Positions 910-20,389 of a stretch of 64,000 nucleotides of DNA are shown piece after piece (within the stretch, counting starts at the first letter, position 1; every line of letters starts with the position of its first letter). The stretch comes from a virus, in IMG/VR virus record IMGVR_UViG_3300028048_000073, positions 62,660 through 126,659 of that record; one strand, given 5' to 3'. The notes beneath the pieces were generated by a model that worked only from the letters and a program-made list of their open reading frames with translations, had not been told where the DNA came from and searched no databases. A program made the position numbers and the translations under genes.

Positions 910-1990
910 ATCTGCTACTCATGTACTTTTATATTTCTATAAAACATTGACTATCTTTTAGTAAAAATTATTTACTATATCTCTTTCGGTTTTCATAGAC
1001 TTCGTTTCCTAAAATCTAGCTACGTATCAATAGTAGCCCTACTCCCCAGCATTTCAACCTAAGGGATAGTCGATACAGGCTTCAAGTTACGTTTTTCCAA
1101 GTTTCTCTTTTACAAACTCTTCGAATAGAATTTACATTTACGCAAGAGTAATCTTTTTGAATTGATACAGGAGATTCCCCTGTATCATACCTTTGCCTAA
1201 TCTCTTTCACCATTTTTTCATTTAATTTTGCTTTATTATTCTTTGAGCCTGAATTTGCTATTGAGCTATATTCTTGACGAGTTTTATACCCTTTAGGAAT
1301 AATATATTCTTTTCCAACATTTGGGTAACCCCTGCCTAACCAAACTCTTTCAAAAGTAGCAAATGAAAAATTGGTATAATCCTGATATACGTCTCTTTTT
1401 CTCTCGCCTAAAAAGCGTCTTTTTCTAATATCTAAAACTTGTTCATTGGTAAAAACTGCGCTCACGCTATTTTCCCCAACAAGAAAAGAGTTATCTCCGC
1501 CCGACGTTAAATTATATCCTATTTCCTTTTGATTTGAGTGATAATATGCTATCCAATATCTTTCTCGTTCATTCAATAATTGCGTATCGGATATGTATTC
1601 TAAAATTTCAATTTCTTCAAAAGGGCCGTATTTCTTAATGGCTAAATCACATGGACTCTTATGATGAGTTTTTAATCTATTAATATTATTATGCTCATAC
1701 ATTCTTCGTTTTATGTCATGGCTTAATCCAATGTAAATTTTCCCATTTGGATAATTAAGTTTATAAATACCAGAAACATTTAAAGGTAATTGTTTAATTT
1801 TTATAATTTCTCCCACATTGTTTTCTCCTTACTTTTTTAAAATAAAGAGATATAATAACTTGATTCCCACGGGATTTTCATGATATCATAAAGTCATCAT
1901 ATCTTTATAATATTTTAGAATTCCCCGTTAGCATTAAAATATTTTTGACCAAAAAATTTTAATACCCCATTGATAAATGGAAAAGATATA
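910..1990 (-). mobile_element. Group I intron carrying a GIY-YIG homing endonuclease gene and interrupting the RecJ-like gene; boundaries approximate
   Basis: A conserved host gene is split around a complete endonuclease ORF. The flanking non-coding blocks at 1040-1081 and 1866-1975 closely match those of the helicase intron (4681-4693, 5507-5625): for example 'ctactccccagc...gggatagtcgataca' and 'gaattccccgttagc...ccaaaaaattttaat'. Confidence 0.5.
1082..1816 (-). CDS. Intron-encoded GIY-YIG homing endonuclease
   Basis: N-terminal GIYKLNYPNGKIYIGLSHDIKRR...YEHN matches the GIY-YIG signature. It is a paralog of the ORF at 4694-5461. Confidence 0.8.
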   Translation of the reverse strand: MGEIIKIKQLPLNVSGIYKLNYPNGKIYIGLSHDIKRRMYEHNNINRLKTHHKSPCDLAIKKYGPFEEIEILEYISDTQLLNERERYWIAYYHSNQKEIGYNLTSGGDNSFLVGENSVSAVFTNEQVLDIRKRRFLGERKRDVYQDYTNFSFATFERVWLGRGYPNVGKEYIIPKGYKTRQEYSSIANSGSKNNKAKLNEKMVKEIRQRYDTGESPVSIQKDYSCVNVNSIRRVCKRETWKNVT

Positions 1991-2644
1991 TTAGCCCAGT
2001 CTACCCAGGCCTATAGCAACTAAATCATAGTATTTTTCGGCATGGTTCGTATGAAAAATATAGTCATCTAAATATCGACAAAATTGCCAAGTAATACCAA
2101 CTCCGCTAAAAGACTTATTAGGGTAATCAGAAAGTTGATTATTTATAATAATAGCATCTTCTGATATTTTTTCAGCTTCATGGTGGTCACAGCAGATAAC
2201 AGGGATTCCCATTTCTCTTAATATCTTATGCTCTTCATAATCATTACTTGCGGCGTCAAGACATACAACAATGTTAAAAGTTTTTGCCAGATCAATACAA
2301 TCTTTCAATCCATGTTGCTTACCTTCATGATGCCACCACGTAATTTTATTTTCAACATATTCAGGTGAAATATTGTATAAATAATTTAAAAATAATGCGG
2401 CTGAAGAATAGCCATCATAATCGCTATCTATCGGTACAAACATCGTAGCATTATCATCAATCGCGGCTTTAAGAACTTCTGCAGCAATCCTGATATTGTC
2501 GCCTAAAAGAGAGTAGCTATTAATAACATCATCTGAAGTATGCAAGTATGCGGGTATATCTTTTTCAGATATACCCCTGTTAAAAAGTATTTGTTCAATA
2601 GTAGAAAACTTATCATTCGGTTTATTAATTAACTTATATTTCAT
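1991..2644 (-). CDS. RecJ-like DHH-family exonuclease, 5' exon
   Basis: DHH motifs are present: VPIDSDYDG (DxD) and CCDHHEAEK (DHH). The ORF ends at the upstream boundary of the intron. Confidence 0.7.
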   Translation of the reverse strand: MKYKLINKPNDKFSTIEQILFNRGISEKDIPAYLHTSDDVINSYSLLGDNIRIAAEVLKAAIDDNATMFVPIDSDYDGYSSAALFLNYLYNISPEYVENKITWWHHEGKQHGLKDCIDLAKTFNIVVCLDAASNDYEEHKILREMGIPVICCDHHEAEKISEDAIIINNQLSDYPNKSFSGVGITWQFCRYLDDYIFHTNHAEKYYDLVAIGLGRLG

Positions 2645-2656
2645 TTTAAAAACTCC

Positions 2657-2962
2657 TTAAATAAAAATCATAGGTCTTTCCCACCTTTCAGAAAAAGGAT
2701 CTTTATTTGTAAGAACAATGTTAAGAAGATCATTCTTTGAAATGTCTAAATCAACATAACATTTTTCCCATTTTTTACCTCGTACTCTATTGTCTATTGG
2801 AAGCACTTCCCAATATTCATTAAGACCATATAACCTTGAAAAGTATCCATTTTTTGTCTTAACTACTTTTGCTTTTGAATCTCCATCAATGCGTAATCGT
2901 TCACATACTTTGATTAGAAAATCTACACCTTTTTTTGGGTGTTTTGTATATATTGCTATCAT
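2657..2962 (-). CDS. hypothetical protein
   Basis: 101-aa ORF in an operon position between the primase and the exonuclease. Confidence 0.35.
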   Translation of the reverse strand: MIAIYTKHPKKGVDFLIKVCERLRIDGDSKAKVVKTKNGYFSRLYGLNEYWEVLPIDNRVRGKKWEKCYVDLDISKNDLLNIVLTNKDPFSERWERPMIFI

Positions 2963-3054
2963 AAGGTAATCCTCTCCTTAAATAATGAAATCACTAGTTT
3001 CTAGTAATAGATCTTTTTATTACCATTAATTTACCAAATTTTTGACCTGTTAAA

Positions 3055-4221
3055 TCAATAAGTTTTGCCATTTCTATCCAACCTTTTTTTAAATAATTTA
3101 ATAAAAGTCGCAGCCCCTTTATCAATAGGACTATCTTTATAATCTAATAAATTTTCTGTATCAAATATAAAACTAATTAAACAATGTTTTGAAAATTTGT
3201 CTCCAATACTCTGTAATTTTTTTATCCATCTTTTATATTCATCATTGCCGATATCAATCCACTGCTTATCAAAAGCAATAACAATTTCTTCTACACCAAG
3301 ATTCCGTAGTAGGTTAAACTGTGCCAAAGTAAAAGAACTGCCGCAAGTTGCAACAGAGATATCTGCATCGCCGCCAAAGTAAGAACGGAAAAGTAGCGTT
3401 GACTTCTCCGACTCAAATACAATAGCTTTCTTAATCTTACTTATATTATCTTTACTATTGTTAAGATTATAAAGTGAAAAACCAAGAGGATGATTAAACA
3501 TCATACCATTCATTAGAGTTGCAGGTTTATATTTTCCATCTTCTTCGAGGTCTTTCACTAACGTTCTTTCTCTTATACCTATTAATCTTCCAAAAATATC
3601 ATAGTGTGGTATAATAATTCCACAAGCGTAGGGGTCATATGCAATGCCTGTCTCTTGCATTACCTCATAAGTAATTCCCTCATTCTCCCATGGCTCAATG
3701 TGCGGGTGTGGATAATTCTTTAAAAACCCATCATCAAAAGTTGCCAATTCAACTCGCTGTTGCGCCTGTATATCTTCTATCTCATATCTTTTTAATACAT
3801 CCCAATCGGGTAAAGAAATATATAGTCCCGCAAATCCTTCGGGCTGTTCTCTTTCGAGCGGAATGCCAAAATATTTTGCAACAAACCAAATCGAATCATA
3901 TAATGTCCAATCCCTATATACAACTTCTCCGTTCTCGTCTTGGACAGGTCTCTTTTCCCCCATAGTCTGTTTTGCTCTTGTTGTTAAATCAAAAATATCA
4001 AAAGCTCCGCCTTCACATTCTGTAAAGCATTTAAATAGGCGAGTATTTTCATAATAGAACAATTTGTGACTACCAACCCCTGGTGGGTTATGGCAAATGG
4101 TTTGCGCAACAAAATAACCATTTGCCATCTGCGGCTCACCGCCCAAATCCGCCACAAAATCAAACACTTGTTCTATTGTTAAAGAATTTTTAATACGGGT
4201 TTTTTCTGCGTTTCCTGACAT
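3055..4221 (-). CDS. DNA primase, DnaG-like, with a zinc-binding domain and a TOPRIM-like region
   Basis: A CHC2-type zinc-finger signature (CHNPPGVGSHKLFYYENTRLFKCFTEC) and an acidic TOPRIM-like segment (IVFESEKS...VIAFDKQ). It lies immediately downstream of the helicase. Confidence 0.55.
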   Translation of the reverse strand: MSGNAEKTRIKNSLTIEQVFDFVADLGGEPQMANGYFVAQTICHNPPGVGSHKLFYYENTRLFKCFTECEGGAFDIFDLTTRAKQTMGEKRPVQDENGEVVYRDWTLYDSIWFVAKYFGIPLEREQPEGFAGLYISLPDWDVLKRYEIEDIQAQQRVELATFDDGFLKNYPHPHIEPWENEGITYEVMQETGIAYDPYACGIIIPHYDIFGRLIGIRERTLVKDLEEDGKYKPATLMNGMMFNHPLGFSLYNLNNSKDNISKIKKAIVFESEKSTLLFRSYFGGDADISVATCGSSFTLAQFNLLRNLGVEEIVIAFDKQWIDIGNDEYKRWIKKLQSIGDKFSKHCLISFIFDTENLLDYKDSPIDKGAATFIKLFKKRLDRNGKTY

Positions 4222-4535
4222 TCTTTTTCACCTTTCTCAATAACACCTATATCCATACCTTGTACGGGGATAAGTCTATAAGAATAATCAGTAACATACA
4301 TTGGCTCAAAACGACACGTACCTTTGTTTGCTTTACACCATAACAGTATGTTATGATATTTATTACCTCTATTCTTATATACCGCTATCTTTACGTTGGG
4401 GGTTTCTAAATTTTTCTTTTGGATAAGTGGACCAAGTCCCTCTAAATCTTCTGGAAGCACATCAAACATAATCATACCAACGTCAACCTTATCAGCAATA
4501 GCCTTAGCACCTCTTAGAAGATTCTGGTCATACAC
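4179..4535 (-). CDS. DnaB-like replicative helicase, 3' exon (C-terminal)
   Basis: A DnaB C-terminal-like segment (GAKAIADKVDVGMIMFDV) follows the intron at 4536-5654. Confidence 0.55.
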   Translation of the reverse strand: MYDQNLLRGAKAIADKVDVGMIMFDVLPEDLEGLGPLIQKKNLETPNVKIAVYKNRGNKYHNILLWCKANKGTCRFEPMYVTDYSYRLIPVQGMDIGVIEKGEKECQETQKKPVLKIL

Positions 4536-5654
4536 TTTTGCATCTCTATAATCCGTTTTCCTTATTATATTTCTATAATAAACTGACTAGCTCTTAACCT
4601 TACTTATATAGTAAGTAAAACCTGTTTCGGTTCTCATGCGATTCGTTTCCTAAAACGCAGACATATCTCATTATAATGTCCCTACTCCCCAGCTTATTTC
4701 AGACTTTGGGGATAGTCGATACATGGCTTAATCCAACATTTTTCTTTATTTTTCCAAATAGGTAAATGCTTATATGTCCTTCCATACAAAATAGCAAATA
4801 TGGCTGATTCAGAAGCAATATGGCGATATTTTTGAATAATTTCTTTTGGTTTATATCCTTGAGAATAAAGATTCCTCATCTCCATAACTTGTTCTTCTGT
4901 AAATTTTGCTCTACCATTTTTTATTCCTTTATTAGAGGTAGACATTTGTCTAATAGGATAATGTTCTTTTTCATTGTGCCAGATTTTCCCTTGATTAATC
5001 ATTGAAATTGTTGATTTTGATATAAAAGGAAATCTTTTTCTAATTTGTTCTAAAGATTCATCAGTTGTCAAAAGGAGTTGCTTAATTAAATCAACATCTT
5101 TTTGAGATAATTTTGCTTGACTATGTTTTTCTCCTTTAAGAGCAAAATTATCTTGTCCACCTGCGGTTAAATTATATCCTATTTTTGAATCATTACTATG
5201 ATAAAAAGAAATCCAATATTTTTCTTTTTTATCTAACTCTTCTTTAGAACATTCTTCTAAAATGGTCAATGAAAAATTTTGAACACCATATTTTTGCATT
5301 GCTTTGTGGATAGGTAAATTTATATCTCTATCGTTTTTATGTGAATATTTTTCTGGCTGCCCCGCCCGAAGATGTTCTTGATAACGTCTAAAAATATCAA
5401 CACTTTGTCCAATATAAATTTTACCATTTGTTAAATTGTTTATTTTATAAATACCTATCATTTTAGTATCCTCCTTTTTTCTGAGAATACTATGTATTGG
5501 ATTACATCACACGGGATTTTCATAGTATAATCAGAATTTTAATATTCTCTGTTCATTATACGTTAGAATTCCCCGTTAGCTATTAATTAAAATGTACCAA
5601 AAAATTTTAATTAATAACCCCCGATGAGTAGTCGGGATAAGGTTTTATTGGCAA
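4536..5654 (-). mobile_element. Group I intron carrying a GIY-YIG homing endonuclease gene and interrupting the DnaB helicase; boundaries approximate
   Basis: Helicase ORFs lie on both sides. The non-coding elements are shared with the RecJ intron (see 910-1990). Confidence 0.5.
4694..5461 (-). CDS. Intron-encoded GIY-YIG homing endonuclease
   Basis: GIYKINNLTNGKIYIGQSVDIFRRYQEHL with a NUMOD-like C-terminus. Confidence 0.8.
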   Translation of the reverse strand: MIGIYKINNLTNGKIYIGQSVDIFRRYQEHLRAGQPEKYSHKNDRDINLPIHKAMQKYGVQNFSLTILEECSKEELDKKEKYWISFYHSNDSKIGYNLTAGGQDNFALKGEKHSQAKLSQKDVDLIKQLLLTTDESLEQIRKRFPFISKSTISMINQGKIWHNEKEHYPIRQMSTSNKGIKNGRAKFTEEQVMEMRNLYSQGYKPKEIIQKYRHIASESAIFAILYGRTYKHLPIWKNKEKCWIKPCIDYPQSLK

Positions 5655-6854
5655 TTACTTTTTCTCACCATTAAGTTGAGTACTTGAGAGAATAAATACT
5701 CCATATTCATTACAAATATCCTTTAAGCGCGTAGAAATCATGAATAGGATATTATCTTCTCTCAGTCCTTTTATCCCAGACTGCGAAGAAATTTCTCCGA
5801 GGATAGCCATACTTGAATGAATATAGTCATGACAGACATATTTAACATTATGCTCTTTTATATCAATTTTTATTGCATTTTCAATATCTTTCATTGTGAA
5901 GTTGGGAAGGGTTGTGATATACAAGGGAGAATCTTTTAAAATCTCCGCCGCCTTTTTAATCCTCTCTTTTTCTCCGACATTGTACTCATTTTTTACAATA
6001 TGGTCTTCATCAACATCAGATATAAAAGCCAACATCATTGTTTGTATCTCTTCACGCTCTTGCTCTGTTGATATGTAGAGCGTCGGTTCTTTTGTTCCAT
6101 TAGGAACCCACTTTCCATTTTTATAGATTGTGTTGCAAGCAAAATTACAAGCATCCGCAATCATTGTACGAGTCTTGCCGATACCTGTGGGCGCAGACCT
6201 TAAATAAAATTTCTTTAATCTGGCTCCTCTAACTATTGCATTAACAAGCGGACCGTAGAGCGGATAGCCAATAGCAGGTTCTTCCTCTAAACGAGAAAGT
6301 AGTTCAAGGATACCTTCACCCGCTTGCTCACTTCTTTTATTTGAAGAATCCAAACACGCATCTCTAATTGAAGATATTCTTTCATCTATTAAATCCGCCA
6401 ATTCTCCAATAGTGCTTCTATCTAAGAAATCTTCTTGTTCTTGCTTTTTCTTTGAATCAAAGATATTATCTATATCATAAAGCCAATCCAAATCAAGTCC
6501 TATCTCATTATAGGCTCTTAGTAACGTCATTTTCTTCATTCTGTTATAATAGAAATCAAATGCTTCAAACATATTTTTTTCAATGATTTCTTGGAGATAT
6601 TCTCGTCCTTTATTTGTTTTATATATCGCAAACTGCTTTGGACGTTGTGTTAAATAATCCTCAATAGTGTTGATGTTAATTTGTTTTGCTCCCGCAAGAT
6701 GTAAATTATAAATTGTGCCAAAAAGGATTTTATGAAATCTCTCAGGGAAATCGCTTTCAATAAAAGAATATCTGTTATCGTCTAAAATATCGGAATGTTT
6801 AAAAACAGAGCCAATAACTTGAATAATTGCTGATGTATCTACATATTTACTCAT
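5655..6854 (-). CDS. DnaB-like replicative helicase, 5' exon
   Basis: Walker A motif APTGIGKT, and the hexameric-helicase organisation of an N-terminal domain followed by a RecA-like core. Confidence 0.7.
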   Translation of the reverse strand: MSKYVDTSAIIQVIGSVFKHSDILDDNRYSFIESDFPERFHKILFGTIYNLHLAGAKQININTIEDYLTQRPKQFAIYKTNKGREYLQEIIEKNMFEAFDFYYNRMKKMTLLRAYNEIGLDLDWLYDIDNIFDSKKKQEQEDFLDRSTIGELADLIDERISSIRDACLDSSNKRSEQAGEGILELLSRLEEEPAIGYPLYGPLVNAIVRGARLKKFYLRSAPTGIGKTRTMIADACNFACNTIYKNGKWVPNGTKEPTLYISTEQEREEIQTMMLAFISDVDEDHIVKNEYNVGEKERIKKAAEILKDSPLYITTLPNFTMKDIENAIKIDIKEHNVKYVCHDYIHSSMAILGEISSQSGIKGLREDNILFMISTRLKDICNEYGVFILSSTQLNGEKK

Positions 6855-7525: not shown

Positions 7526-8239
7526 TTAAAGTTCCTTTAAATCAGCTACAATAAGGCTAAGCATTTCAACTTGTTCTCTTGTACACTGTGAAACTTTCTT
7601 TCCTCTTCCGAGGTAACGCTCTACGATTTGCTGAATACGTGGAGCAATCTTCTCTCCAAATTCCTCTTCATCTGGGTAACTTCTCTTCAGATTGCCAATG
7701 ACGTCATTGAACTCGTCCATGAGATCGTCGAAGTTAAGCTCTTCTGCGATATGGATTTCCGCAGTATCAGTTACGAACTCTTCACCCTTAGTCTCAGCTT
7801 CCTTATCTATTGCATCATTAAGTGCTTTTACAAGGTCTTTATAAGTAGGACCAATTTCCTCGGGCAGATATTGAAAGCGTCCTCCACATGAGATTGAACC
7901 ATCTTTTGAACGAAGTGTAATAACTCTTTTTTGAACTCCGTCTTGTACTTCCTGATGCATGTACCCATAAAGATCCGTCATGTTCTCGATGATTGCATTA
8001 TAGGTATTCGCAACAGAGGGGCGTATTACACTATACTCTGTGCCGTCTTTTCTCTTAAAAACGCCTTCTTTAGCATGAGAAATAAAATAAACAGCATATC
8101 CCATTTGAGTAATAGATCTAAAAGTAGATTCAAACTCTTTCTTTAATAAACCCCATCCTTGACCATAAGGGATCTGAGAAATTGTATCAACATCATTTTG
8201 ATCACAAATATATTTCTCACAGAGTTGTGCCGCAATATC
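7526..8239 (-). CDS. RecA-like/Sak4-like AAA ATPase, 3' exon. The frame is open upstream of the annotated Met as far as 8239
   Basis: The in-frame extension (DIAAQLCEKY...ITQMGYAVYF) has no start codon. The Walker-A exon lies upstream at 9465-9773 across an intron. Confidence 0.45.
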   Translation of the reverse strand, partial: DIAAQLCEKYICDQNDVDTISQIPYGQGWGLLKKEFESTFRSITQMGYAVYFISHAKEGVFKRKDGTEYSVIRPSVANTYNAIIENMTDLYGYMHQEVQDGVQKRVITLRSKDGSISCGGRFQYLPEEIGPTYKDLVKALNDAIDKEAETKGEEFVTDTAEIHIAEELNFDDLMDEFNDVIGNLKRSYPDEEEFGEKIAPRIQQIVERYLGRGKKVSQCTREQVEMLSLIVADLKEL

Positions 8240-9464
8240 TCATTTGTTATCCTAAAGGCTTTTTATCCTTTAGCTCTTATACTTGTTATTCGTATAAGTT
8301 CAGCGTACCTTTTATAGTCATACCTGACTATTAGAGTCTCTTGGAGTATTAATAAGGTTAGTAAATTTATTCTTTTTCCTTTGCAGGCTTAGATTGCAAG
8401 AGGAATTTTTATAAAATAAGTTATATAATTGCTTTATGCTATTTTTATTTGAGGTGTAGAGCCTATACATAACAGTTCCATTGTCTAAAACGCTAGTGGA
8501 GATTTCGTTTGTTTCAACGTAATATTGATTAATGAGAACATTCCGTATCCAATAGATAACCTCTTTACTCGCCCCGGCAATCTCAAAACATACACGTTCG
8601 TCGTCTTGCCTTTGGTATATAGTTCCATCTCCATCAAAATATCCCTTTATATAATCTATATAATAGTTTGATTGCAGGAAGTATGGGGGTTTTAAGATAA
8701 AGGTTTTATTGGGAAGAATATTATAATGAGCTAAATCTTTTTTCCATTCGCTGCTCCATACGGCAAATTTACACGTTTTTTGTTGGGTACTGTTTTTTGT
8801 ATAATGTTTAATCGGTCTCTGACTTTGAGTTTCAGCTCTTATTTGCTCTAATACCTCCGTGTCGCGCTCTGCTAACTCAATGGTTATGCAATTTTCTTTT
8901 TTAGCAATGTTGCCGTCTGAAGCTATAAAGCCCAATATATAAGCCATATTAGGAGTTTGAACCTTAAAATAATCATCGTTACAAGGATACTTTCGACCTA
9001 TTTGCTTTGCTTCTGTGTAAGTCCTCTTTTCAATCCCCGCATTTTTCAATATCGTTTCAACTGTTGCTTGAGACAAATGATATTCTCTTCCGCAAGTTTG
9101 TAATCCTTGCTTATTGATTAAATAGTTTTCTATTACTTTCTTTTTGATTTCATCAGATAGATCTTTTGCAACTCCATTAGCCTCTTGTACACCTCTGATA
9201 TGTATATGTCTTTCCTTCAATAGTTTTCTCAATGAATATAAAGATACACCACAATGTTCAGAAACATACTTTTGACTCTTTTTATCTTCATCATACATTT
9301 TAATGATATAACTTATTTCTTCTTCTGTAAACTGTCTTCTCAACCGAGCCGACCTCCCTTATAATTTACTCTACGCGTTGCGCGTGTCACAATTATGTGA
9401 CTTCCGCTCTGGTTACCATTTCAGGCTTCCAGCTTTTTACTCTAATTTTTACATACGGCAGACA
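8240..9464 (-). mobile_element. Group I intron carrying a LAGLIDADG homing endonuclease gene and interrupting the ATPase gene; boundaries approximate
   Basis: The 3' intron segment at 8240-8317 shares 'ataaaggctttttatcctttat(t/c)tcttata' with the GyrA intron segment at 19086-19303. Confidence 0.45.
8318..9343 (-). CDS. Intron-encoded LAGLIDADG homing endonuclease (two motifs) with an N-terminal HTH region
   Basis: LGFIASDGNI and YIKGYFDGDGTIY motifs. TAG stop codon. Confidence 0.8.
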   Translation of the reverse strand: MRRQFTEEEISYIIKMYDEDKKSQKYVSEHCGVSLYSLRKLLKERHIHIRGVQEANGVAKDLSDEIKKKVIENYLINKQGLQTCGREYHLSQATVETILKNAGIEKRTYTEAKQIGRKYPCNDDYFKVQTPNMAYILGFIASDGNIAKKENCITIELAERDTEVLEQIRAETQSQRPIKHYTKNSTQQKTCKFAVWSSEWKKDLAHYNILPNKTFILKPPYFLQSNYYIDYIKGYFDGDGTIYQRQDDERVCFEIAGASKEVIYWIRNVLINQYYVETNEISTSVLDNGTVMYRLYTSNKNSIKQLYNLFYKNSSCNLSLQRKKNKFTNLINTPRDSNSQV

Positions 9465-9773
9465 TTAGTTTACCGTATCTACGACCACGGTTTTAAACCT
9501 TTCTTTAACTTCCTTCTTTTTTAGCTGATTTACTATTTGTTTCATTTCTGACCAAGAAGTGACATCTTGTGCAAAAATGTTTGCTATTGCGTTGTATCCG
9601 CGTTCAAACGCCAAGACAAGTGGCGAAGGCATCTGCGAACCAAGTGTAGTTTTTCCTGTTTTAGGCTCACCATAAATATATGTAATATATCCGCTTAAAT
9701 CACGCGCAATTTTATGTGGCTCAAGTGCTAATAAATTAATAGCCATAATTTCAAACTCCTTTATCAAAAACAT
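9465..9773 (-). CDS. RecA-like/Sak4-like AAA ATPase, 5' exon with the Walker A motif
   Basis: GEPKTGKTT P-loop. Confidence 0.55.
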   Translation of the reverse strand: MFLIKEFEIMAINLLALEPHKIARDLSGYITYIYGEPKTGKTTLGSQMPSPLVLAFERGYNAIANIFAQDVTSWSEMKQIVNQLKKKEVKERFKTVVVDTVN

Positions 9774-11845: not shown

Positions 11846-12880
11846 TTATTTCCCCTTTGATATTCCAGCAAGAGTATTATATCCAAAGTCTTTTGACATA
11901 TAAGCATCTATGTAATATTTTTCTCTTTCGTTTAAATCTTTTTGAGAACACTTTTCCAATAGTTCCCAAGTAAAATTCCATAATCCATCTTCAAGCATTG
12001 CTTTATAGAGTTTATTATTTGTGGGGGTATCTATTCCGAGGCCGCATTTAGCATGACTCTTAAAACGCGTAGCTACGTCTACTGCCTGACCTATATAACA
12101 TCTATTATTTTTGATATTTGTTATTTTATAAATACCACAAACAGTAGAAGGACCAAGCACCTTCGTGCATAATGCAGTCATAGGTTTTTGAAACCATGTA
12201 GACCAAATAAGCATACTTACTGCCCGCTTGTTATTTACTTTCTTTTTAAAATCTTCAAACAAAAGGATATCAGAGATTTCTTCTTCTTTTAAAACAATTC
12301 TAAAGAAGTCTTGTTTTTCTTTTAATTTCTCTTGCTGAATTGCGGCTTCTTGTATTGCTCGCCAAGCACTCTTTAATTGTTCAATTTCTTTTTCGGTTTG
12401 TTCTTTATCTTTTTGAATTTCTTTTTTCGATTCTTCCCATTTCTTTTGACATTCAAGTATTTTTTCATCATACTCTTTATCTTTTTTTTCATAATCTTGT
12501 TCAAGAATTGAGCAAAAATTACTAAAAGCCTTGCGGGAAGTTTCTTCCATCTGTCGTTCTATTTGTTCTTGCCTACTAACATTTTCACAACTTGTTTCTA
12601 ATTGCTGTTGTTTATCCCTAATTTGCCCTTCCATATAGGTGATTGCTTCTTCCATTGCCTTTATTGTATTATTATGGTTATCGGCATCTTCTTGTAGACA
12701 TCTTTCTTCTTTCTTTAAAATTTCAATATGCTCTTGCATTTTTTCTATTTCACAAGAAAGGTAGTCTCGATAGTCTCGCATTTTATCAGCTTTTAAACCA
12801 AATAGTACAACAAGACCTATACAAACAACAATAGCGATAGCAATAATCCCAAACGCACCTGCGGCTCCTAAAAGTTCCAT
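11846..12880 (-). CDS. Protein with a membrane anchor, a coiled coil and a C-terminal GIY-YIG nuclease domain
   Basis: An N-terminal hydrophobic helix (AFGIIAIAIVVCIGLVVLF), a long charged coiled coil, and C-terminal GIYKITNIKNNRCYIGQAVDVATRFKSH...YNT. Confidence 0.55.
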   Translation of the reverse strand: MELLGAAGAFGIIAIAIVVCIGLVVLFGLKADKMRDYRDYLSCEIEKMQEHIEILKKEERCLQEDADNHNNTIKAMEEAITYMEGQIRDKQQQLETSCENVSRQEQIERQMEETSRKAFSNFCSILEQDYEKKDKEYDEKILECQKKWEESKKEIQKDKEQTEKEIEQLKSAWRAIQEAAIQQEKLKEKQDFFRIVLKEEEISDILLFEDFKKKVNNKRAVSMLIWSTWFQKPMTALCTKVLGPSTVCGIYKITNIKNNRCYIGQAVDVATRFKSHAKCGLGIDTPTNNKLYKAMLEDGLWNFTWELLEKCSQKDLNEREKYYIDAYMSKDFGYNTLAGISKGK

Positions 12881-13253: not shown

Positions 13254-14192
13254 TTACTTTACAAGATATTTTTCTTGTATCAAATCATCATACGTATTTA
13301 TTTTATTTAAGTCATAAAAAGGAATACGATATAATAGATATCCATTCTTTTTACACCATTGGTTTTTATAATTATCTCTAAATTGTCTTTCAGACAAAGT
13401 ATCTTTGCATAAATCATTCTCTTCAAAATGTTGTTGTCCATCAAACTCTATTAAAAATAAAATATTATTTGTATTTTTTTCAAAAATACAAAAATCGAAA
13501 AATAATAATGCATTTGTTTTAGGATTTCGACAACTATTATTTCTATATTGTGAAATAAAACTTGTTTTATTTTGTTCTAAAATTATTTTTATACATTGTT
13601 CTCCTCTTGATTTGGGAATTTTACAACCACAAGAATTAACATGACCAGATTGAAGTCTTTCTGAAGAATCATAAAAAATTTTTCCACAATCACATTGGCA
13701 TTTCCAGATATAGCAACCTCGATCATTTAATTTTCCTGTATTTTCTAAAGCTATAATATTACCATACCTTTTATTTGTTAAATCCAATGTATTACGTTTA
13801 CTTGTCATTTCTCTTTTTAGACATCCACAAGAACGCGTTTTTTGATGTACTAGTGCGCTATATCGTATAGATACAATATTTCCACAGGAACATTGACAAT
13901 ACCATTGACTTTCATATCTTTTACCATAAGGAATATCTAGATTGCGTTTCAGAACTGTTAGCCTTCCAAATTGCTTACCAACCAATGAAGTGGTATCAAT
14001 TGTATGATTTTCTTTTGCTAAACAACCACAAGAACGTGTTGGTTTATTTTTTGTAGTTAGATTTGATCCTCGAATACTTTTTATTTTTCCACACTCACAT
14101 TGGCATATCCAATAAGCTGCTGCAGTCTTTTTCTCTGTATCTCTTTTTAAAACTGTTAATTTTCCAAAAGTTTGTCCTGTTAAATCTATCAT
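13254..14192 (-). CDS. Triple zinc-ribbon repeat protein with a C-terminal Vsr/DUF559-like (PD-(D/E)xK) endonuclease domain; possibly a free-standing homing nuclease
   Basis: Three repeats of the W/YxCQCxCG...SCGCL pattern. C-terminal LIEFDGQQHF...D...K resembles DUF559/Vsr-type nucleases. Confidence 0.45.
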   Translation of the reverse strand: MIDLTGQTFGKLTVLKRDTEKKTAAAYWICQCECGKIKSIRGSNLTTKNKPTRSCGCLAKENHTIDTTSLVGKQFGRLTVLKRNLDIPYGKRYESQWYCQCSCGNIVSIRYSALVHQKTRSCGCLKREMTSKRNTLDLTNKRYGNIIALENTGKLNDRGCYIWKCQCDCGKIFYDSSERLQSGHVNSCGCKIPKSRGEQCIKIILEQNKTSFISQYRNNSCRNPKTNALLFFDFCIFEKNTNNILFLIEFDGQQHFEENDLCKDTLSERQFRDNYKNQWCKKNGYLLYRIPFYDLNKINTYDDLIQEKYLVK

Positions 14193-14550: not shown

Positions 14551-14599
14551 AATCTTTTTTCTCCTTTAATATTATAAAATTTATATATTTAATAAGAAC

Positions 14600-14650
14600 T
14601 TTTTCGTTCTTTATTATACTAATATTATACCAAAAATTTTTATACTTTGC
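14600..14650 (-). promoter_or_regulatory. Variant of the conserved early promoter
   Basis: The reverse complement reads TTTGCAAAG-N-TATAAT. Confidence 0.4.
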
Positions 14651-14658
14651 AAAAAATT

Positions 14659-14865: not shown

Positions 14866-16862
14866 CTATCGGCATCTTTTAGTCCAAATTTTTTGATAAA
14901 ATCTCCTTCCGAAATATTTTCTATGTTGTACTCTTTTGCTTTTTTATTTTTACTTGATGTACTATTTATGTCATTATTGATAAGATAATTAATCTTTTTT
15001 GTTACAGAATCTGTAACTTTGCCGCCCGCATTTATAATAGCAATCTTAAATTGTTCTCTATTTTTAAAATGCTGTAATTTTCCTGTGATGCACACAGTTA
15101 TATCTTTCAGCGTATCGGTTGAGGCATATTCTGGCGCAAAAGTGGTAAAACTATCTAAATAATTCTCATATATATAATCTGCCGAAGACCAATCAAATTC
15201 CTTTAGTGCTTTGTCTTTTGCTGGACCGAATCTATCAATAGTGCTAAAGTTAAATCCATCAGCGATAGCATCCATTAATTCTTCATATGAACTAAAGTAA
15301 TTCATCAAATCTTTAGCTACTGTTTTACCAATAAGGGGAATACCAAGAGCAGATATAAATGTTGGGAAAGTTGTGGTTTTACTTTTTTCTATTGCGGCGA
15401 GTATATTATCAACCGACTTCGGACCAAAACCCTCCATTTGTATCCATTCATCTCTATGGTCTTTTAGAGTATAAATATCTACAATGTCTTTAAGCCAACC
15501 TTTATCCCATAGCTTAGTTATTGTTGCTTCGGACAATCCTTTTATGTCCATTCCCTTTTTAGAAGTATAATGGATAATTTTCTCAATTCGAGAAGTTGTA
15601 CATTTTGGATTCTTGCAAACTGCAATTTTTACAGCACCATTTTGCTGAATTGAAACAGGCTCTCCGCAACTTGGACATACTTTTGGCACATCAAACATAA
15701 ATGCGCCCTCTGGTTCTGCGGGGGTAACTGCGCTAATTTGAGGAATAATCTCATTTGCTTTAAATACTGTTAGTTTATAACCTGCATACCACGGAAGCGG
15801 AGATAACATTTCCATAACGCCAACGTTATGAAGACTTGCGCGGGAAACCGTTGTACCACCAATGTCTATGGGAGTAAAATGAGCAACTGGTGTGAGAACA
15901 CCTGTTCTGCCAATTTGCCATTCGACACTTTGTAGAGTCGTTTCATATTCATCTTCATAGAACTTGTATGCGAGGCCGCCTTTAAAATGATGGTCTGTTC
16001 TTCCTTGTTTTTCATAGAAAAGACAAACATCATATTTAAAAACAATACCATCTATTGGATATCCTTTTTCTTCACACTCATATTTGATTTCATCAATAAG
16101 AGTTTCATCCCACTTACTTGCAGCTCTAAAAGGTACAATAATAAAATCAAATTCATCACGCAATATTTCAAGTCTTTCGCTTAAAGTAGTTGTAAGTTCC
16201 AGACCTTGAATAGCGTCCCAAGCTATAAAAGTTAATCTCCTTTTTGCACATTCATTTGCATCGAGGAGCCTGATACTGCCTGCCGCAAAGTTACGAGGAT
16301 TTTTATAACTGTCTTTAAAATATTCAAAATCATCATAAGTGCAAATAATCTCACCGTCAACAACGAGCTTACCTACCATATGAGGAATCTCTTGTGGAAT
16401 TGAGGGGATGACCCGCGCATTATGTGTGATATCTTCTCCAACCTCTCCATCTCCACGAGTTTCAGCACGAACTAATTTACCTTTTTCATAAGTGAGTGAA
16501 ACAGTTAATCCGTCCATTTTTCCCATACCAATATAAGCATGATGACCTACGAAATCTTTCAATTCATTTGTGCTTTTGGTTTTAGCAAGTGATAGCATAG
16601 GGTGGTTGTGGGATACTTTATTAAGTTCATTAACAATAGCAAAATGAATGGTTTTAGTTGGTGAATCAGGCGGAGTATATCCTGTTGCCTGTTCAAGTCG
16701 GATAAGTTCAAAATAAAACCTATCCCACAAGGTATCGGACATAAGTGGCTCGCCCTTATCATAAGCATCTGTTGCTGCGTTAAGCACCTTTACAAACCAG
16801 TCTACTCTTCCTTCCTCATCATCGGGGATTTCTCCAAATTGTTCAAGTGTCGTATAAAACAT
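14862..16862 (-). CDS. ligA: NAD-dependent DNA ligase
   Basis: KxDG adenylation motif (GKMDGL), ETRGDGEVGEDIT, a zinc-finger Cys cluster (CPSCGEP...CKNPKC), and a C-terminal BRCT-like tail. Confidence 0.9.
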   Translation of the reverse strand: MFYTTLEQFGEIPDDEEGRVDWFVKVLNAATDAYDKGEPLMSDTLWDRFYFELIRLEQATGYTPPDSPTKTIHFAIVNELNKVSHNHPMLSLAKTKSTNELKDFVGHHAYIGMGKMDGLTVSLTYEKGKLVRAETRGDGEVGEDITHNARVIPSIPQEIPHMVGKLVVDGEIICTYDDFEYFKDSYKNPRNFAAGSIRLLDANECAKRRLTFIAWDAIQGLELTTTLSERLEILRDEFDFIIVPFRAASKWDETLIDEIKYECEEKGYPIDGIVFKYDVCLFYEKQGRTDHHFKGGLAYKFYEDEYETTLQSVEWQIGRTGVLTPVAHFTPIDIGGTTVSRASLHNVGVMEMLSPLPWYAGYKLTVFKANEIIPQISAVTPAEPEGAFMFDVPKVCPSCGEPVSIQQNGAVKIAVCKNPKCTTSRIEKIIHYTSKKGMDIKGLSEATITKLWDKGWLKDIVDIYTLKDHRDEWIQMEGFGPKSVDNILAAIEKSKTTTFPTFISALGIPLIGKTVAKDLMNYFSSYEELMDAIADGFNFSTIDRFGPAKDKALKEFDWSSADYIYENYLDSFTTFAPEYASTDTLKDITVCITGKLQHFKNREQFKIAIINAGGKVTDSVTKKINYLINNDINSTSSKNKKAKEYNIENISEGDFIKKFGLKDADS

Positions 16863-16874
16863 ATTATAAAAATC

Positions 16875-16920
16875 TCCTTTTTTATTTCTATATATATTTT
16901 ATCATAATTTTTTATAAAAT
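16875..16920 (-). promoter_or_regulatory. Variant of the conserved early promoter, upstream of ligA
   Basis: The reverse complement reads TTGAAT...TATGATAAAATATATATAGAAATAAA. Confidence 0.4.
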
Positions 16921-16949
16921 TCAATAGAGGGGCATTAAAGCCCCTCTTG

Positions 16950-19085
16950 TTATATTTTCACCGCAGAAAGAATGACACTCTTTTTAATCATTATATTTCC
17001 AACACTCGTTCTTGTAAGCAGCGGAACCTCAGATGCGGCAATACAAAGATTATTCGTCGTGCCTTGAATGAAAATAATGTCATTTTCATCAATAGCAAAT
17101 GCAGAAGCTACAGACGTCTTACTTAATAAAACACCTTTTCCTCCACGGTTTTGAGTTAAAATAGTAGAAACATCAATTTTCTTGCCTGTTCCGCAAGTAT
17201 TGAAAATTGCAACTTTTGTATCTACTTTTGGACAAACAACTCCTGCAATGACTTTATCATCTTGCGCAAGGGTTATGCCTTTTACACCCATAGCAGTCTT
17301 TCCAACAGGAAGAACTTTTGTTGTATCAAACTTTAGTCCTATTCCATTCTGGGTTACCAACAGCATATCTTCATCACTGACAAATGCGGCAGATGCGATT
17401 GTATCGTCTTCACGCAACTTGATAGCGGCTGTTCCCGCACCCTTTCTTCCTGTGAAATATTCCTTTAATTCAGTCTTTTTAATCAAACCATTTTGAGTTA
17501 CGAATATAACGTACTTTGCAGTACCATGACGATTCAGAGAGGTTGCCGCAATTACACTTTCGTCACCTTTCATTGTCAATAGCATTGTTAAATCAGTTGC
17601 TTTTGTTTTCATTGTTCCCGCGGGAATATTATCAACGAGAGTTCTATATAGTCTTCCTTTTGATGTGAAAATCATTAAGGTATCTATTGTGTTTGTGGAA
17701 ATCGTTGTTAAGATAGCTTCATCAGGCTTCTTTATTCCCTGAGTATTTCTATGCTGAGGCTTAAAGGCTGACTTAGGAACTCTTTTTACTCCGCCGTCTC
17801 GAGTGATAATGACAACCACATCTTCCGCCTCGACATTCTCAATTTCCTTATCTTCATCTGTTAATTCGGGGAGGGTGATGACCTTTGTTCTGTGGTCATC
17901 ACCAAGTTCTTTAATTGTCTTTTCCCAACCTGCAATAAGATAAGAATTAAATTCTTCAACATCATTGAGAATGTGCTCAATTTTTGCGGCTTCTTCCTTA
18001 AGCTGCTCATTCTCTTGTATCAGTTTCTCAATTTCAAGTTTTGCCAATCTTGACAAAGTAACCTTAAGAATTGCTTTTGCCTGGTCCTCATTGATGTCAA
18101 GAAATTTTATCAATTTCTCTTTTGCATCTGTGGTTGAAGATGATGTCTTTATTAACTCAACGACTTCATCAATATTATTAAGACACTTTAGTATACCTTC
18201 ATTTATCATAATTTGGAATCTAATCTTATTGAGATTATATTCAAACTCTCTGCGATAAACTATTTTCTCATGTTCAACGTGCTCTTGAAGCATCTCTTTC
18301 CATGTAAAAATACGAGGAAATCTTCCATCTTTTAGCATTGTAAAGTTTACACCAAAATGGCTCTGTAAAGAGGTATGTTTCCAAAGATAATTGAGCACTT
18401 TCGTAGGATTACCATTTTTCTTCAAATAGATTTTAAGAAGAGGAGTTTTTCCTGTTAAATCATTAAAACGCTCAATCCCAGGATTTTCATCACTTTCAAC
18501 TATTGCTTCCAATTCTCGGCAAATTGTATTGGTATACACGCCATAAGGAATTTCTGTAACAACTAAAGTATTTTCCTTACTATCTAAATCAATTTTTGCT
18601 CTAAGTTTACAAGATACTCCATGACCAATTCTCATTGACTCTTTTACTTCATCTTCATTGAGAAGATACCCGCCCGTAGCGAAATCAGGCTGACAATAAA
18701 GTTCTTCAAAGGTTGCATCTGGATTATTTAACAATGTAATAAGAGCTTGATGTAAATCTTTTGCATTATATTGCGGAATTGAACTTGCTGCGCCGATACC
18801 AATTCCCAAAGTTCCATTTACTAAATTATAAAAGCCTTTAGACGGCAAGACCATAGGATACTGTTCTGTATCATCATAATTATCTCGCCACTCTGATATT
18901 GTATCTTTATTAATTGAATCAAACATACTTGCTGCTATTTTTGATAGTCTTGCAGAAGAATAACGCGGTGAGGCCCAGTTACCTGATTCAATGGGGTTAC
19001 CACCGTTTCCTTCAACTTCAACAAGAGGATATCTCATAGCAAAAGGTTGAGCAGCACGCATAATAACGCCTTCTGCACTTGAATC
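16950..19085 (-). CDS. Topoisomerase II large subunit (GyrA/ParC-like, T4 gp52-type), 3' exon
   Basis: MRAAQPFAMRYPLVEVEGNGG matches the GyrA active-site region. The frame is open upstream to ...LDSSAEGVIM, which matches the GyrA pattern HGDSS....M.R.AQ. Confidence 0.8.
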   Translation of the reverse strand, partial: DSSAEGVIMRAAQPFAMRYPLVEVEGNGGNPIESGNWASPRYSSARLSKIAASMFDSINKDTISEWRDNYDDTEQYPMVLPSKGFYNLVNGTLGIGIGAASSIPQYNAKDLHQALITLLNNPDATFEELYCQPDFATGGYLLNEDEVKESMRIGHGVSCKLRAKIDLDSKENTLVVTEIPYGVYTNTICRELEAIVESDENPGIERFNDLTGKTPLLKIYLKKNGNPTKVLNYLWKHTSLQSHFGVNFTMLKDGRFPRIFTWKEMLQEHVEHEKIVYRREFEYNLNKIRFQIMINEGILKCLNNIDEVVELIKTSSSTTDAKEKLIKFLDINEDQAKAILKVTLSRLAKLEIEKLIQENEQLKEEAAKIEHILNDVEEFNSYLIAGWEKTIKELGDDHRTKVITLPELTDEDKEIENVEAEDVVVIITRDGGVKRVPKSAFKPQHRNTQGIKKPDEAILTTISTNTIDTLMIFTSKGRLYRTLVDNIPAGTMKTKATDLTMLLTMKGDESVIAATSLNRHGTAKYVIFVTQNGLIKKTELKEYFTGRKGAGTAAIKLREDDTIASAAFVSDEDMLLVTQNGIGLKFDTTKVLPVGKTAMGVKGITLAQDDKVIAGVVCPKVDTKVAIFNTCGTGKKIDVSTILTQNRGGKGVLLSKTSVASAFAIDENDIIFIQGTTNNLCIAASEVPLLTRTSVGNIMIKKSVILSAVKI

Positions 19086-20389
19086 CAGTTTATTGTTATC
19101 ATAAAGGCTTTTTATCCTTTATTTCTTATAGTTTCCTATAAGCTCAGCATATCTTTTCGCTTAAAGCGCTGCGGCCTCGTGGTAGGATTATATCTTTTCA
19201 CCTACTATGCGTTGCCCCTGACTATAGTTTCTATAGCCTTCGGTTCGGATTAGCATATCATATGTTATATAACTTAGCCTTCCCGCTTAATTCCGCAGTT
19301 TAATCACGGCAATTCATAAAATTGCAGATAAAGTTGTCTTTTTCGGTCTAAACTGATAGTTGAAGAATCATAAAAATAATGAAGAATTTTACTTGTTTGT
19401 TGACGTCCAGATAGTTCTAACTTGTAAATAACACCGTGCTGATGAATATGATTAGTGGAAATATCTATAATATACCGACAAATATAATCTTGAACATATT
19501 TACAAATTTCATAACTGCCAACAATTCCCATTCCATATTGCGTTTGTCTTATATATCCATCACCATCTAATAGTCCTCGAATATATGCTTTTTCTAATTC
19601 GGGCGTTTTACAAATATATGGTTTTTCTTTTCCCGATTTTCGAGCAGTAACCCCCTTGTCTTTTAAATTTGCTACAATCTGCGTAGAGCATATATTCAAG
19701 CAAGAAACTGGATTATCTTTTGAATATGCTCCGCCAAAAGTCGATTTGATAACTTTGGGAATTTCTTCCGCAGGCATTTTAAGATACTGACAAAATTTAA
19801 TTAGATGTTCTTGATCTCGCGCTGCTAAATTAATATTTAACCTATTATTTTGGATAATACATCCATCAGCTGTAATAAAACCTAACCAATATGCATCGTC
19901 TTCGGTTAAAATATCTTTAAAGGCTTCTCTATTATAATGATACCTATTGGGGGTTTTTACCTGAGGATCAATTCCTAATACCTCTAATTGTCGAACTAAA
20001 CTTTCTTTACGAGAGGGCGCAGCAGGATATCTTTTTTTAAATTCTGGGTATCCGAGTTCTAGACATTCATTATAATGCTTTATTACCTCTAATTCGTTTG
20101 GTGTAAAATAGTATATATAATCAGGGAAAATTGGACTTTCAAATTTAAATTTTTTATATTCATTATTTTTTCTATATTTTGCTATTCCATGCCTATCTGC
20201 TCCAAACAATTCTCCCGCTTGGGTCATCGACATTTTTGGATTTTGCTCTAAAAAATTAATTGCTTCAACTATCGCTTTTTTAATTCGTTCCATAAAATTT
20301 TTCCTCCTTTTGATGTCATTATAACTTCAAAAACAGAAAAAATAAATTCGTTAAATCAGACCAAAAATTTTAATTTTTTACTTTTATTT
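19086..20389 (-). mobile_element. Group I intron carrying a LAGLIDADG homing endonuclease gene in the GyrA-like gene
   Basis: The exon junction is inferred as ...VRVYIHG | DSSAEGVIMRAAQ..., matching the GyrA consensus. The last intron base pairs as G. The 3' intron core is shared with the ATPase intron. Confidence 0.55.
19304..20293 (-). CDS. Intron-encoded LAGLIDADG homing endonuclease
   Basis: WLGFITADGCI and LLDGDGYIRQT motifs. Confidence 0.8.
   Translation of the reverse strand: MERIKKAIVEAINFLEQNPKMSMTQAGELFGADRHGIAKYRKNNEYKKFKFESPIFPDYIYYFTPNELEVIKHYNECLELGYPEFKKRYPAAPSRKESLVRQLEVLGIDPQVKTPNRYHYNREAFKDILTEDDAYWLGFITADGCIIQNNRLNINLAARDQEHLIKFCQYLKMPAEEIPKVIKSTFGGAYSKDNPVSCLNICSTQIVANLKDKGVTARKSGKEKPYICKTPELEKAYIRGLLDGDGYIRQTQYGMGIVGSYEICKYVQDYICRYIIDISTNHIHQHGVIYKLELSGRQQTSKILHYFYDSSTISLDRKRQLYLQFYELP

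Follow-up and report, generated by a model that had tools for sequence, protein, structure and literature searches.

Probable mobile group I introns with homing endonuclease genes in four replication and recombination genes of an uncultured phage

Split genes and splice junctions

We analyzed a 64,000-nt stretch of viral DNA (positions 62,660 to 126,659 of IMG/VR record IMGVR_UViG_3300028048_000073), here called the window, from a large, uncultured phage of Firmicutes type; all coordinates are window positions. All genes between positions 1 and 23000 lie on the minus strand. An earlier note on this DNA, made without database searches, had reported homing endonuclease genes splitting the genes for a RecJ-like exonuclease, the DnaB helicase, an AAA recombination ATPase, and a GyrA-like topoisomerase subunit and had read the insertions as group I introns. 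Pfam matches and the list of open reading frames (ORFs) place the endonuclease ORFs between the halves of DHH/DHHA1, DnaB, AAA_24, and DNA_topoisoIV/GyrA genes, so the reported places were right and needed only small corrections (Table 1). We consider it highly probable that the insertions are four mobile group I introns, each made up of a ribozyme and a homing endonuclease gene, in conserved motifs of four co-oriented replication and recombination genes. The introns of the RecJ-like and DnaB genes (introns 1 and 2) are referred to below as type A, and those of the AAA_24 and GyrA genes (introns 3 and 4) are referred to as type B.

The AAA_24 ATPase is Sak4-like in the annotations of its phage homologues, and the GyrA gene encodes DNA_topoisoIV plus the GyrA C-terminal blades (Pfam). 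The GyrB gene (20611-22635), which adjoins GyrA, is intact and uninterrupted in the window. All eight exons and all four endonuclease ORFs are open. In the ORF list, the frame of AAA_24 exon 2 starts only at 8104; the preceding 45 codons are conserved in an alignment with homologues.

Table 1. Putative introns, exons, and endonuclease genes in the window
Feature	Position	Strand	Remarks
Intron 1 (type A, 1087 nt)	2006..920	-	In RecJ-like DHH/DHHA1 gene; last letters, ..GGCCU for 5′ exon (2007) and ..ACAUG for intron (920)
Intron 2 (type A, 1113 nt)	5666..4554	-	In DnaB helicase gene; last letters, ..AAUGGU for 5′ exon (5667) and ..AAAACG for intron (4554)
Intron 3 (type B, 1231 nt)	9471..8241	-	In AAA_24/Sak4-like ATPase gene; last letters, ..AUACGGU for 5′ exon (9472) and ..CAAAUG for intron (8241)
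Intron 4 (type B, 1304 nt)	20389..19086	-	In GyrA gene; last letters, ..UCACGGU for 5′ exon (20390) and ..AAACUG for intron (19086)
RecJ-like exon 1	2007..2644	-	DHH domain, residues 73-212 of spliced product
RecJ-like exon 2	1..919	-	Runs past window start
DnaB exon 1	5667..6854	-	Pfam DnaB and DnaB_C cross the junction in the spliced product
DnaB exon 2	4179..4553	-	Defined by junction and YorI alignment
AAA_24 exon 1	9472..9773	-	AAA_24, E 6.7e-45, residues 31-215 of spliced product, across the junction in codon 101
AAA_24 exon 2	7526..8240	-	First 45 codons precede any in-frame ATG, GTG, or TTG
GyrA exon 1	20390..20614	-	DNA_topoisoIV, E 2.6e-100, residues 27-459 of spliced product
GyrA exon 2	16950..19085	-	Defined by domains of spliced product
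GIY-YIG gene, intron 1 (244 aa)	1082..1816	-	Pfam GIY-YIG, E 7.8e-11; PHROG 7168 and 314 homing endonuclease families
GIY-YIG gene, intron 2 (255 aa)	4694..5461	-	In P6 loop; Pfam GIY-YIG, E 1.2e-8
LAGLIDADG gene, intron 3 (341 aa)	8318..9343	-	Pfam LAGLIDADG_3, E 1.2e-11; PHROG 4645
LAGLIDADG gene, intron 4 (329 aa)	19304..20293	-	Pfam LAGLIDADG_3, E 6.9e-7; PHROG 4645
Free-standing GIY-YIG gene	11846..12880	-	Pfam GIY-YIG, residues 248-335; PHROG homing endonuclease families
Free-standing nuclease gene	13254..14192	-	PHROG 374, E 4e-49; PHROG 559, E 3e-25

We placed the junctions at the only positions that both restore the reading frame and leave U as the last exon nucleotide and G as the last intron nucleotide. 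All four upstream exons end in U, and all four insertions end in G. In each intron, the exon end pairs with an internal guide in a P1 helix of 4 to 7 bp that has a U·G wobble at the splice junction (exon/guide, GGCCU/GGGCU, UGGU/GCCA, AUACGGU/GCCGUAU, and UCACGGU/GCCGUGA for introns 1 to 4). Read from the sequence, the upstream frame meets a TAA 1 to 5 codons into every one of the four introns; in-frame stops of this kind have been noted for bacterial and phage group I introns (PMC3984707).

With the insertions removed, the RecJ-like frame reads AIGL/VADMM (a slash marks the junction; split codon, CT/A), which is supported by colinearity with the intron-less allele of L010, our label for the closest IMG/VR relative (protein identities, 89% for AAA_24, 76% for the RecJ-like protein, and 70% for DnaB). 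The DnaB junction, TQLNG/DYRDA, aligns without gaps to TQLNGDWKEA of SPbeta YorI, and the AAA_24 junction, VVDTV/DIAAQ (split codon, GT/A), aligns as VVDTV/DIAAQLCEKYI to IIDTVDIAYGLCEKFI of Enterococcus phage VRE9_4. For GyrA, the junction proposed in the earlier note, VYIHG/DSSAEGVIM, proved correct; splicing there restores HG/DSS. Single Pfam domains run across the junctions of the spliced products, which also match their homologues as one piece: DnaB matches SPbeta YorI over residues 6-498, AAA_24 matches Enterococcus phage Sak4-like genes over residues 5-338, and the RecJ-like product matches that of L010 over residues 1-519. The AAA_24, RecJ-like, and DnaB genes of L010 are all intron-less and colinear at the nucleotide level with the spliced window genes. 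We concluded that excision restores intact host frames that are colinear with uninterrupted homologues (YorI, the Enterococcus Sak4-like genes, and L010).

The type A introns carry GIY-YIG genes, and the type B introns carry LAGLIDADG genes, with Pfam scores of 42.6 and 35.5 bits (cut-off, 22.6) and, for LAGLIDADG_3, 45.1 and 29.9 bits (cut-off, 22.5). Identity within the pairs is 36% for the GIY-YIG proteins (E 8e-29) and 27%, over 230 aa, for the LAGLIDADG proteins (E 2e-11). The gene in intron 1, located in the P6 loop, has a GTG start and an AAGGAG ribosome-binding site, and the gene in intron 3 has a TTG start and a GGGAGG ribosome-binding site. Both blocks that the earlier note described as shared by the RecJ-like and DnaB introns are real: positions 44-142 of intron 1 resemble positions 56-160 of intron 2 (74% identity), and the 3′ block extends further than had been described (925-1078 and 938-1102, respectively; 72%). 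The AAA_24 and GyrA insertions have only their last ~70 nt in common (81% identity). The shared 3′ core described for this pair is present, with the 19-mer AAAGGCTTTTTATCCTTTA occurring exactly twice in the window (8254 and 19103; 0 expected), but the two copies of the 30-nt consensus differ at 4 positions rather than at 1.

Ribozyme cores of two types

In the type A introns, a script found all modeled base pairs in order (87 of 87 in intron 1 and 86 of 86 in intron 2), all of them Watson-Crick or G·U. P1 is followed, 2 to 5 nt past the guide, by the 5′ strand of P3 and then by two hairpins and J3/4 (CUAA). The middle part consists of P4 (ACGGGG/UCCCGU), P5, and P6, which closes the loop that holds the ORF. 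The 3′ part runs from P7 (GACUA/UAGUC) through P7.1, AGUAGGG, P7.2, an additional hairpin whose loop (UUAGGAAACGA) is conserved, P3′, P8, P7′, and P9 to the terminal G. The P7 elements, ..CGACUAU.. and ..AAGAUAGUC.., are as in the Twort introns. P6 is formed by UCAAGUUA/UAACUUGA in intron 1; in eight type A introns it consists of 8 to 18 perfect base pairs of unrelated sequence and spans 700 to 800 nt of ORF. The P6 3′ strand of intron 1 (1089-1082) is the last 8 nt of the endonuclease gene, stop codon included, and in intron 2 the 3′ end of the endonuclease gene overlaps the P6 3′, P7 5′, and P7.1 5′ strands (4736-4707).

P3 of type A pairs positions 1981-1989 with 977-985 in intron 1 and 5640-5646 with 4617-4623 in intron 2, and it is placed in the same way in the related loci L008, L058, L062, and L099 and in 72 IMG/VR loci. 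In an anchored test of 72 type A introns, using windows of 15 nt before the first hairpin (H1) and 11 nt after a GAAA anchor, a helix of at least 5 bp was found in 63 of 72 cognate pairs, compared with 37% of non-cognate pairs, and there were 29 distinct helix variants. An earlier comparison of cognate and non-cognate pairs with 115-nt windows gave no signal because chance A/U helices dominate there. Two other pairings were considered. An alternative P3 beside J3/4 was ruled out by reading the sequences, as there is no complementary partner in L062 or in the insert of Enterococcus phage EF1 described below. Pairing of an early segment with J8/7, seen when L099 is folded to minimum free energy, can form in intron 1 and L099 and is impossible in EF1 and L062; it is at most an alternative conformer. 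The type A core motif occurs at no fewer than 119 places in IMG/VR.

For the type B introns, the script found 59 of 59 base pairs in order in intron 3 and 67 of 67 in intron 4, again all Watson-Crick or G·U. The order is P1 (guide, GCCGU..), P3 to P7 with no P2, the P7.1 hairpin, CCA(C/A)GAG, P3′, P8, P7′, P9, P9.1, and the terminal G. The P7 elements are GCAACGCRUAG and AAAAGRUAYGCUG; introns 3 and 4 differ there by a compensatory A-U/G-C exchange. In the AAA_24 intron, the P7.1 loop, which follows the P7 5′ strand and precedes P3′, holds the LAGLIDADG gene, whose 3′ end is overlapped by the P3′ strand and P8 (8336-8315). In the GyrA intron, it is instead the P1 loop that holds the LAGLIDADG gene; the stop codon of this gene overlaps the guide, GCCGUGA (19310-19304), which sits ~1.08 kb from the splice site with which it pairs in a 7-bp P1 with U·G at the junction. 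A minimum-free-energy fold of the GyrA intron core recovers P5, P6, P7.1, P9, and P9.1 (z = -3.0).

The guide GCCGU follows an exon ending in ..ACGGU in unrelated genes, namely, in the AAA_24 (9453-9459) and GyrA (19304-19310) introns, in the terL intron of Lactobacillus phage JCL1032, and in the intron of the related locus L064. A guide common to unrelated sites suggests that it limits the new sites that the type B family can colonize.

Covariation was assessed by counting pairs on helices registered by hand from conserved flanks. A MAFFT alignment of ORF-deleted type B constructs, in which P3 and P4 of three sequences were out of register, was left unused. For type A, 98.2% of 448 helix cells were paired (1000 shuffles: mean, 71%; maximum, 76%), and for type B, 98.3% of 354 cells were paired (1000 shuffles: mean, 76%; maximum, 81%); these figures of 98% are partly built in because the helices were picked for complementarity, and only the excess over the shuffles and the anchored P3 test are independent of that choice. 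Changes on both sides of a pair were seen in 40 of 54 helix columns for type A (shuffle maximum, 30) and in 29 of 44 for type B (shuffle maximum, 22). Across relatives, P7 occurs as GCAUA/UAUGC, GCGUA/UACGC, and GACUA/UAGUC, and introns at the same site show compensatory helix differences (e.g., P3 CUGCGG/CCGCAG versus UCCCAG/CUGGGA). We concluded that all four insertions hold complete P1-P9 cores whose helices covary across relatives.

Relatives and known systems

A scan of IMG/VR with the spliced DnaB and GyrA proteins yielded 160 loci of the same phage clade, on contigs of up to ~180 kb. Among them are the intron-less alleles to which the earlier note had looked for a definition of the homing sites: L010 is empty and colinear at the AAA_24, RecJ-like, and DnaB sites, and the AAA_24 and GyrA sites are polymorphic among relatives. 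Homologous introns occupy exactly the same AAA_24 site in L064, L067, and L069 (LAGLIDADG gene 50% identical) and exactly the same GyrA site in L168 (LAGLIDADG gene 54% identical), and ~75 other relatives are empty at each of the two sites. Type A introns are present elsewhere in the same genes, in DnaB of L062 (15 codons downstream), in the RecJ-like genes of L052 and L064 (residue 429/430), and in the AAA_24 gene of L071 (residue 128). The GyrB genes of L099 and L104 hold two type A introns each. One of them is ORF-less, at DSDG/YHIG, and the other has a GIY-YIG gene (~497-813 and ~1010-2255 in L099). The host sites had been called unusual in the earlier note; they are less so, given that related phages have introns in the same genes and that helicase-gene introns have been reported for Staphylococcus myoviruses (PMC5526547).

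A megablast search of positions 1-20500 against GenBank phages found no close relative; the sole match was a 72-nt intron stretch in Staphylococcus phage 6ec. By blastn, the GyrA intron core matches the terL intron of JCL1032, which is annotated as a joined coding sequence (CDS), and introns of Clostridium, Clostridioides, and Staphylococcus phages. Intron 1 matches an insert, which we read as an intron, that splits a gene annotated as DNA polymerase III alpha in EF1, and it also matches Lak megaphages. In 6ec, the tape-measure gene is split by an insert with an HNH gene, and the 3′ end of the AAA_24 intron matches this insert.

Two of these phages showed further features. The tape-measure gene of 6ec (L001, record 20536-28605) is annotated as two CDS with the HNH gene between them, and just ahead of the second CDS is a stretch that shares 86% identity with the AAA_24 intron 3′ end; from this likeness, the insert is probably an unannotated group I intron. 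In an intron of Prevotella phage Lak-A1 (L009, ~459070-460300), the 5′ half is type B-like (P4, CGGU/ACCG) and the 3′ half is of type A; P7 of this intron covaries (GGUCA/UGACC). The mixed halves suggest that intron halves have been shuffled between types.

Judged by sequence, type A resembles the IA2 introns of T4 td and Staphylococcus phage Twort, and type B belongs to a JCL1032-like family found in terminase and tape-measure genes. Type A shares with Twort orf142 and td the P7 pairing GACUA/UAGUC, the P9 hairpin, and the terminal G, and it shares with Twort the order P7, P7.1, AGUAGGG, P7.2, P3′, P8, P7′ (Twort sequence and Rfam alignment). Its J3/4-P4 element, CUAACGGGG...AAUCCCGUG, is similar to its counterpart in td. 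The GIY-YIG genes lie in the P6 loop, as does the gene for I-TevI, a GIY-YIG enzyme, in td. In contrast to Twort and td, type A has the P3 5′ strand directly after P1, two hairpins before J3/4, an additional hairpin with the UUAGGAAACGA loop, and other host genes. On the Rfam group I model (Intron_gpI, RF00028), the Twort introns score 64-101 bits, whereas the ORF-less type A member scores 29.8.

The terL intron of JCL1032 and type B match by blastn at 72% over 117 nt and have the same helix set in the same order, without P2. They also share the guide GCCGU with the exon end ..ACGGU, CCACGAG before P3′, and the P9 and P9.1 hairpins. The last ~65 nt of type B match Staphylococcus and Clostridium phage introns at 84-91% (blastn). 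The LAGLIDADG genes here are in the P7.1 or P1 loop, whereas the JCL1032 intron is ORF-less and the 6ec insert has an HNH gene; the host genes here encode a Sak4-like ATPase and GyrA, compared with the terminase and tape-measure genes of JCL1032-type introns. Introns of the JCL1032 type have been grouped with the IA1/IA2 introns that occur in tape-measure and terminase genes of phages (B. cereus-group prophage introns; PMC2504315).

As in the T4 topoisomerase (gp39/gp60-mobA) and in nrdA-mobE of Aeromonas phage Aeh1, a homing endonuclease gene here lies between the halves of a topoisomerase or replication gene. Those two systems are not known to contain a ribozyme, and their halves are translated separately; here, in contrast, each ORF is embedded in a complete ribozyme whose helices covary. 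It is well established that group I introns of phages carry GIY-YIG or HNH genes and, less often, LAGLIDADG genes; as a rule, they interrupt genes for DNA polymerase, ribonucleotide reductase, thymidylate synthase, or terminase (PMC3984707, PMC11878797). Gut and rumen phages, namely, crAss-like and Jug phages (PMC12880540) and Bastillevirinae (PMC11878797), likewise have several group I introns with endonuclease genes in the essential genes of a single genome, and gut jumbo phages have ~18 introns per genome (PMC12880540). The targets in crAss-like/Jug phages and Bastillevirinae are mainly DNA polymerase, terL, ribonucleotide reductase, and thymidylate synthase, rather than DnaB, RecJ-like, Sak4-like, and GyrA genes as here, and covariance models often match one side of the endonuclease loop, or neither, in those phages (PMC12880540, PMC11878797).

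Alternative readings, neighboring features, and significance

Splice rules, restored frames, P1-P9 cores, and homology to the JCL1032 intron support the group I intron reading of the earlier note. Several points weigh against it. Splicing is deduced from DNA rather than RNA, and the helices were picked by eye for complementarity. The RecJ-like and DnaB sites used here are empty in all relatives compared, with no intron at the same site. A blastn comparison of all intron halves with the biochemically validated Twort orf142 introns found no significant similarity. Intron_gpI gave zero matches in the window, both at the gathering threshold and at an E of ≤10, and also in a 1.1-kb slice; the strongest backing from Rfam is that for the L099 GyrB intron, an ORF-less type A relative, which scores 29.8 bits (E 6.9e-6) against a gathering score of 50. 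Finally, the P3 5′ strand of type A is placed non-canonically, and two hairpins separate P3 from J3/4 and P4, unlike the Rfam order P1-P2-P3-J3/4.

The silence of Rfam in the window is uninformative because the ORFs break the model and because an annotated intron, the ORF-less type B relative in JCL1032 terL, is also unmatched by RF00028. As a control, three validated Twort introns scored 63.6-100.9 bits on this model. The L099 match is full-length (model positions 1-253), with the P3 columns flagged as non-pairing. The Rfam and GISSD models are weak for phage introns with endonuclease loops (PMC11878797). The earlier note had regarded failure of covariance models as grounds for abandoning the introns; an Intron_gpI match in the window is indeed absent, but the Twort, L099, and JCL1032 controls make this result not decisive.

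We tentatively raise the possibility, which we think has less than an even chance of being correct, that type A represents a variant of subgroup IA, so far undescribed, with an altered order of strands. It would span the RecJ-like and DnaB introns, the at least 119 IMG/VR places, the EF1 insert, and a Lak megaphage intron (3′ half). In such a variant, the hairpins that are normally P2 and P2.1 might fall between P3 and J3/4, with the third, extra hairpin (UUAGGAAACGA loop) after P7.2. If true, the rearranged strand order would explain the sub-threshold covariance scores of even ORF-less members, and a common phage intron class would be systematically under-annotated.

The same anatomy might result from split genes without splicing, in which free-standing endonuclease genes have been inserted and the halves are translated separately and assemble into active protein. 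Three of the four downstream exons do have an in-frame start 3 to 8 codons past the junction (RecJ-like, ATG at 909; DnaB, GTG at 4535; GyrA, ATG at 19061), and splicing was deduced rather than observed. Against this, AAA_24 exon 2 has 45 conserved codons ahead of any possible in-frame start, and by eye there is no obvious ribosome-binding site before the downstream exon starts. Each ORF is surrounded by ~200 to 350 nt of noncoding sequence that forms a conserved P1-P9 core with covarying helices, which a free-standing endonuclease gene would have no need of, and ORF-less relatives (L099 GyrB and JCL1032 terL) interrupt genes with no endonuclease present. We consider separately translated halves very unlikely. 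We give just as little credence to decayed introns, that is, former group I introns that have lost splicing and left four pseudogenes in the assembled genome. The sub-threshold Rfam scores, the origin of the DNA in a metagenome assembly (Logan SRR8442993), and the lack of functional evidence would be compatible with decay, but all core helices are intact, with no mismatches, and the endonuclease ORFs and exons are all open. Moreover, DnaB and GyrA are replication genes, GyrA has an intact GyrB partner beside it, and loss of four replication genes at once is improbable in a lineage in which 80 relatives keep them.

Insertion in conserved motifs is also a property of inteins, and DnaB and GyrA are classic intein hosts. 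However, Pfam found no Hint or intein domain in the window proteins, and an in-frame protein insertion is impossible because stops follow the exons by 1 to 5 codons and the endonuclease ORFs are in other frames, with their own starts and ribosome-binding sites. Likewise, the window has no reverse transcriptase/maturase ORF (Pfam) and no Rfam group II match. We concluded that inteins and group II introns are excluded by sequence.

For the favored reading, four mobile group I introns, the anatomy of the sequence, the frames regained on excision, the covarying helices, the homology with annotated introns, and the existence of occupied and empty alleles lead us to expect the following course of splicing, endonuclease activity, and choice of target sites. 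Each gene would be transcribed through its intron. The last 4 to 7 nt of the exon would pair with the internal guide to form P1, with the U·G wobble at the splice site. The P3-P8 core, with its P3/P7 pseudoknot, would bind free guanosine, which would attack the 5′ splice site; the terminal G of the intron would then enter the same site, and the exons would be ligated to give intact RecJ-like, DnaB, Sak4-like, and GyrA frames. Ribosomes arriving from exon 1 would be halted by the in-frame TAA, and the endonuclease genes would be translated from their own ribosome-binding sites. In a mixed infection, the endonuclease would cut the intron-less allele of a related phage near the junction, and repair would copy the intron in.

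The window also contains two free-standing nuclease genes. Pfam and PHROG bore out the GIY-YIG domain that the earlier note had seen in the ORF at 11846-12880, which is outside any split gene; its product has a hydrophobic N terminus (a membrane anchor predicted from sequence), a coiled-coil-like middle, and the GIY-YIG domain at the C terminus. For the ORF at 13254-14192, which the earlier note called a triple zinc-ribbon protein with a DUF559-like domain, Pfam found no DUF559 match and only weak DUF2726 and RAP matches below the cut-offs. Besides three Cys-rich repeats, its product has a Vsr/PD-(D/E)XK-like nuclease domain at the C terminus; a more fitting description than DUF559-like is that of a Vsr/PD-(D/E)XK-type nuclease belonging to PHROG 374 and 559, of which PHROG 559 is a Vsr-type endonuclease family (PMC11878797).

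An 18-mer, AAAAATTTTTGGTATAAT, occurs on the minus strand at three intergenic sites (14624-14641, 54587-54604, and 57584-57601) and resembles an extended -10 promoter; TTTGxA stands 17 nt ahead of it. There are near-copies upstream of endonuclease genes, in hairpin H2 of introns 1 and 2 (1947-1960 and 5595-5608) and in the P1 loop of intron 4 (~20352-20364). The promoter-like motif has 5 matches, compared with 0.7 expected.

About 15 phage tRNA genes are clustered at 48389-54107. A tRNA with the anticodon CUA (49391-49466, minus strand; ARAGORN) looks like an amber suppressor; the intron calls are independent of it because the stops involved are TAA or TGA. A 132-nt Rfam tRNA match (53153-53284, minus strand) was not called by ARAGORN, and an odd ARAGORN tRNA (53882-53957, minus strand) has a two-base anticodon call. 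A gene for a T4-type RNA ligase 1 (28278-29396) adjoins one for an RlaP-family nucleotidyltransferase (29579-30334), both on the minus strand; the pair, near the tRNA cluster, looks like an RNA repair module. A pyruvate formate-lyase-like (PFL-like) glycyl-radical enzyme is encoded at 33640-35853 (minus strand; PFL-like, E 2e-191, plus Gly_radical) and, by this similarity, may be an auxiliary metabolic gene suited to an anaerobic host.

Phage mobile elements of this kind are real but ordinary, and how such elements work is unchanged by this case. Its consequences are, in part, practical: unless the introns are recognized, four core genes are called as eight fragments or are missing, and a standard Rfam scan misses the introns. 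The case would add GyrA, the RecJ-like nuclease, and the Sak4-like ATPase to the known hosts of phage group I introns and would provide a further example in a replicative helicase, and matched occupied and empty alleles are available for two homing sites. Homologous ribozymes that carry endonuclease genes in different loops are direct evidence that the ribozymes and the endonucleases have separate histories.

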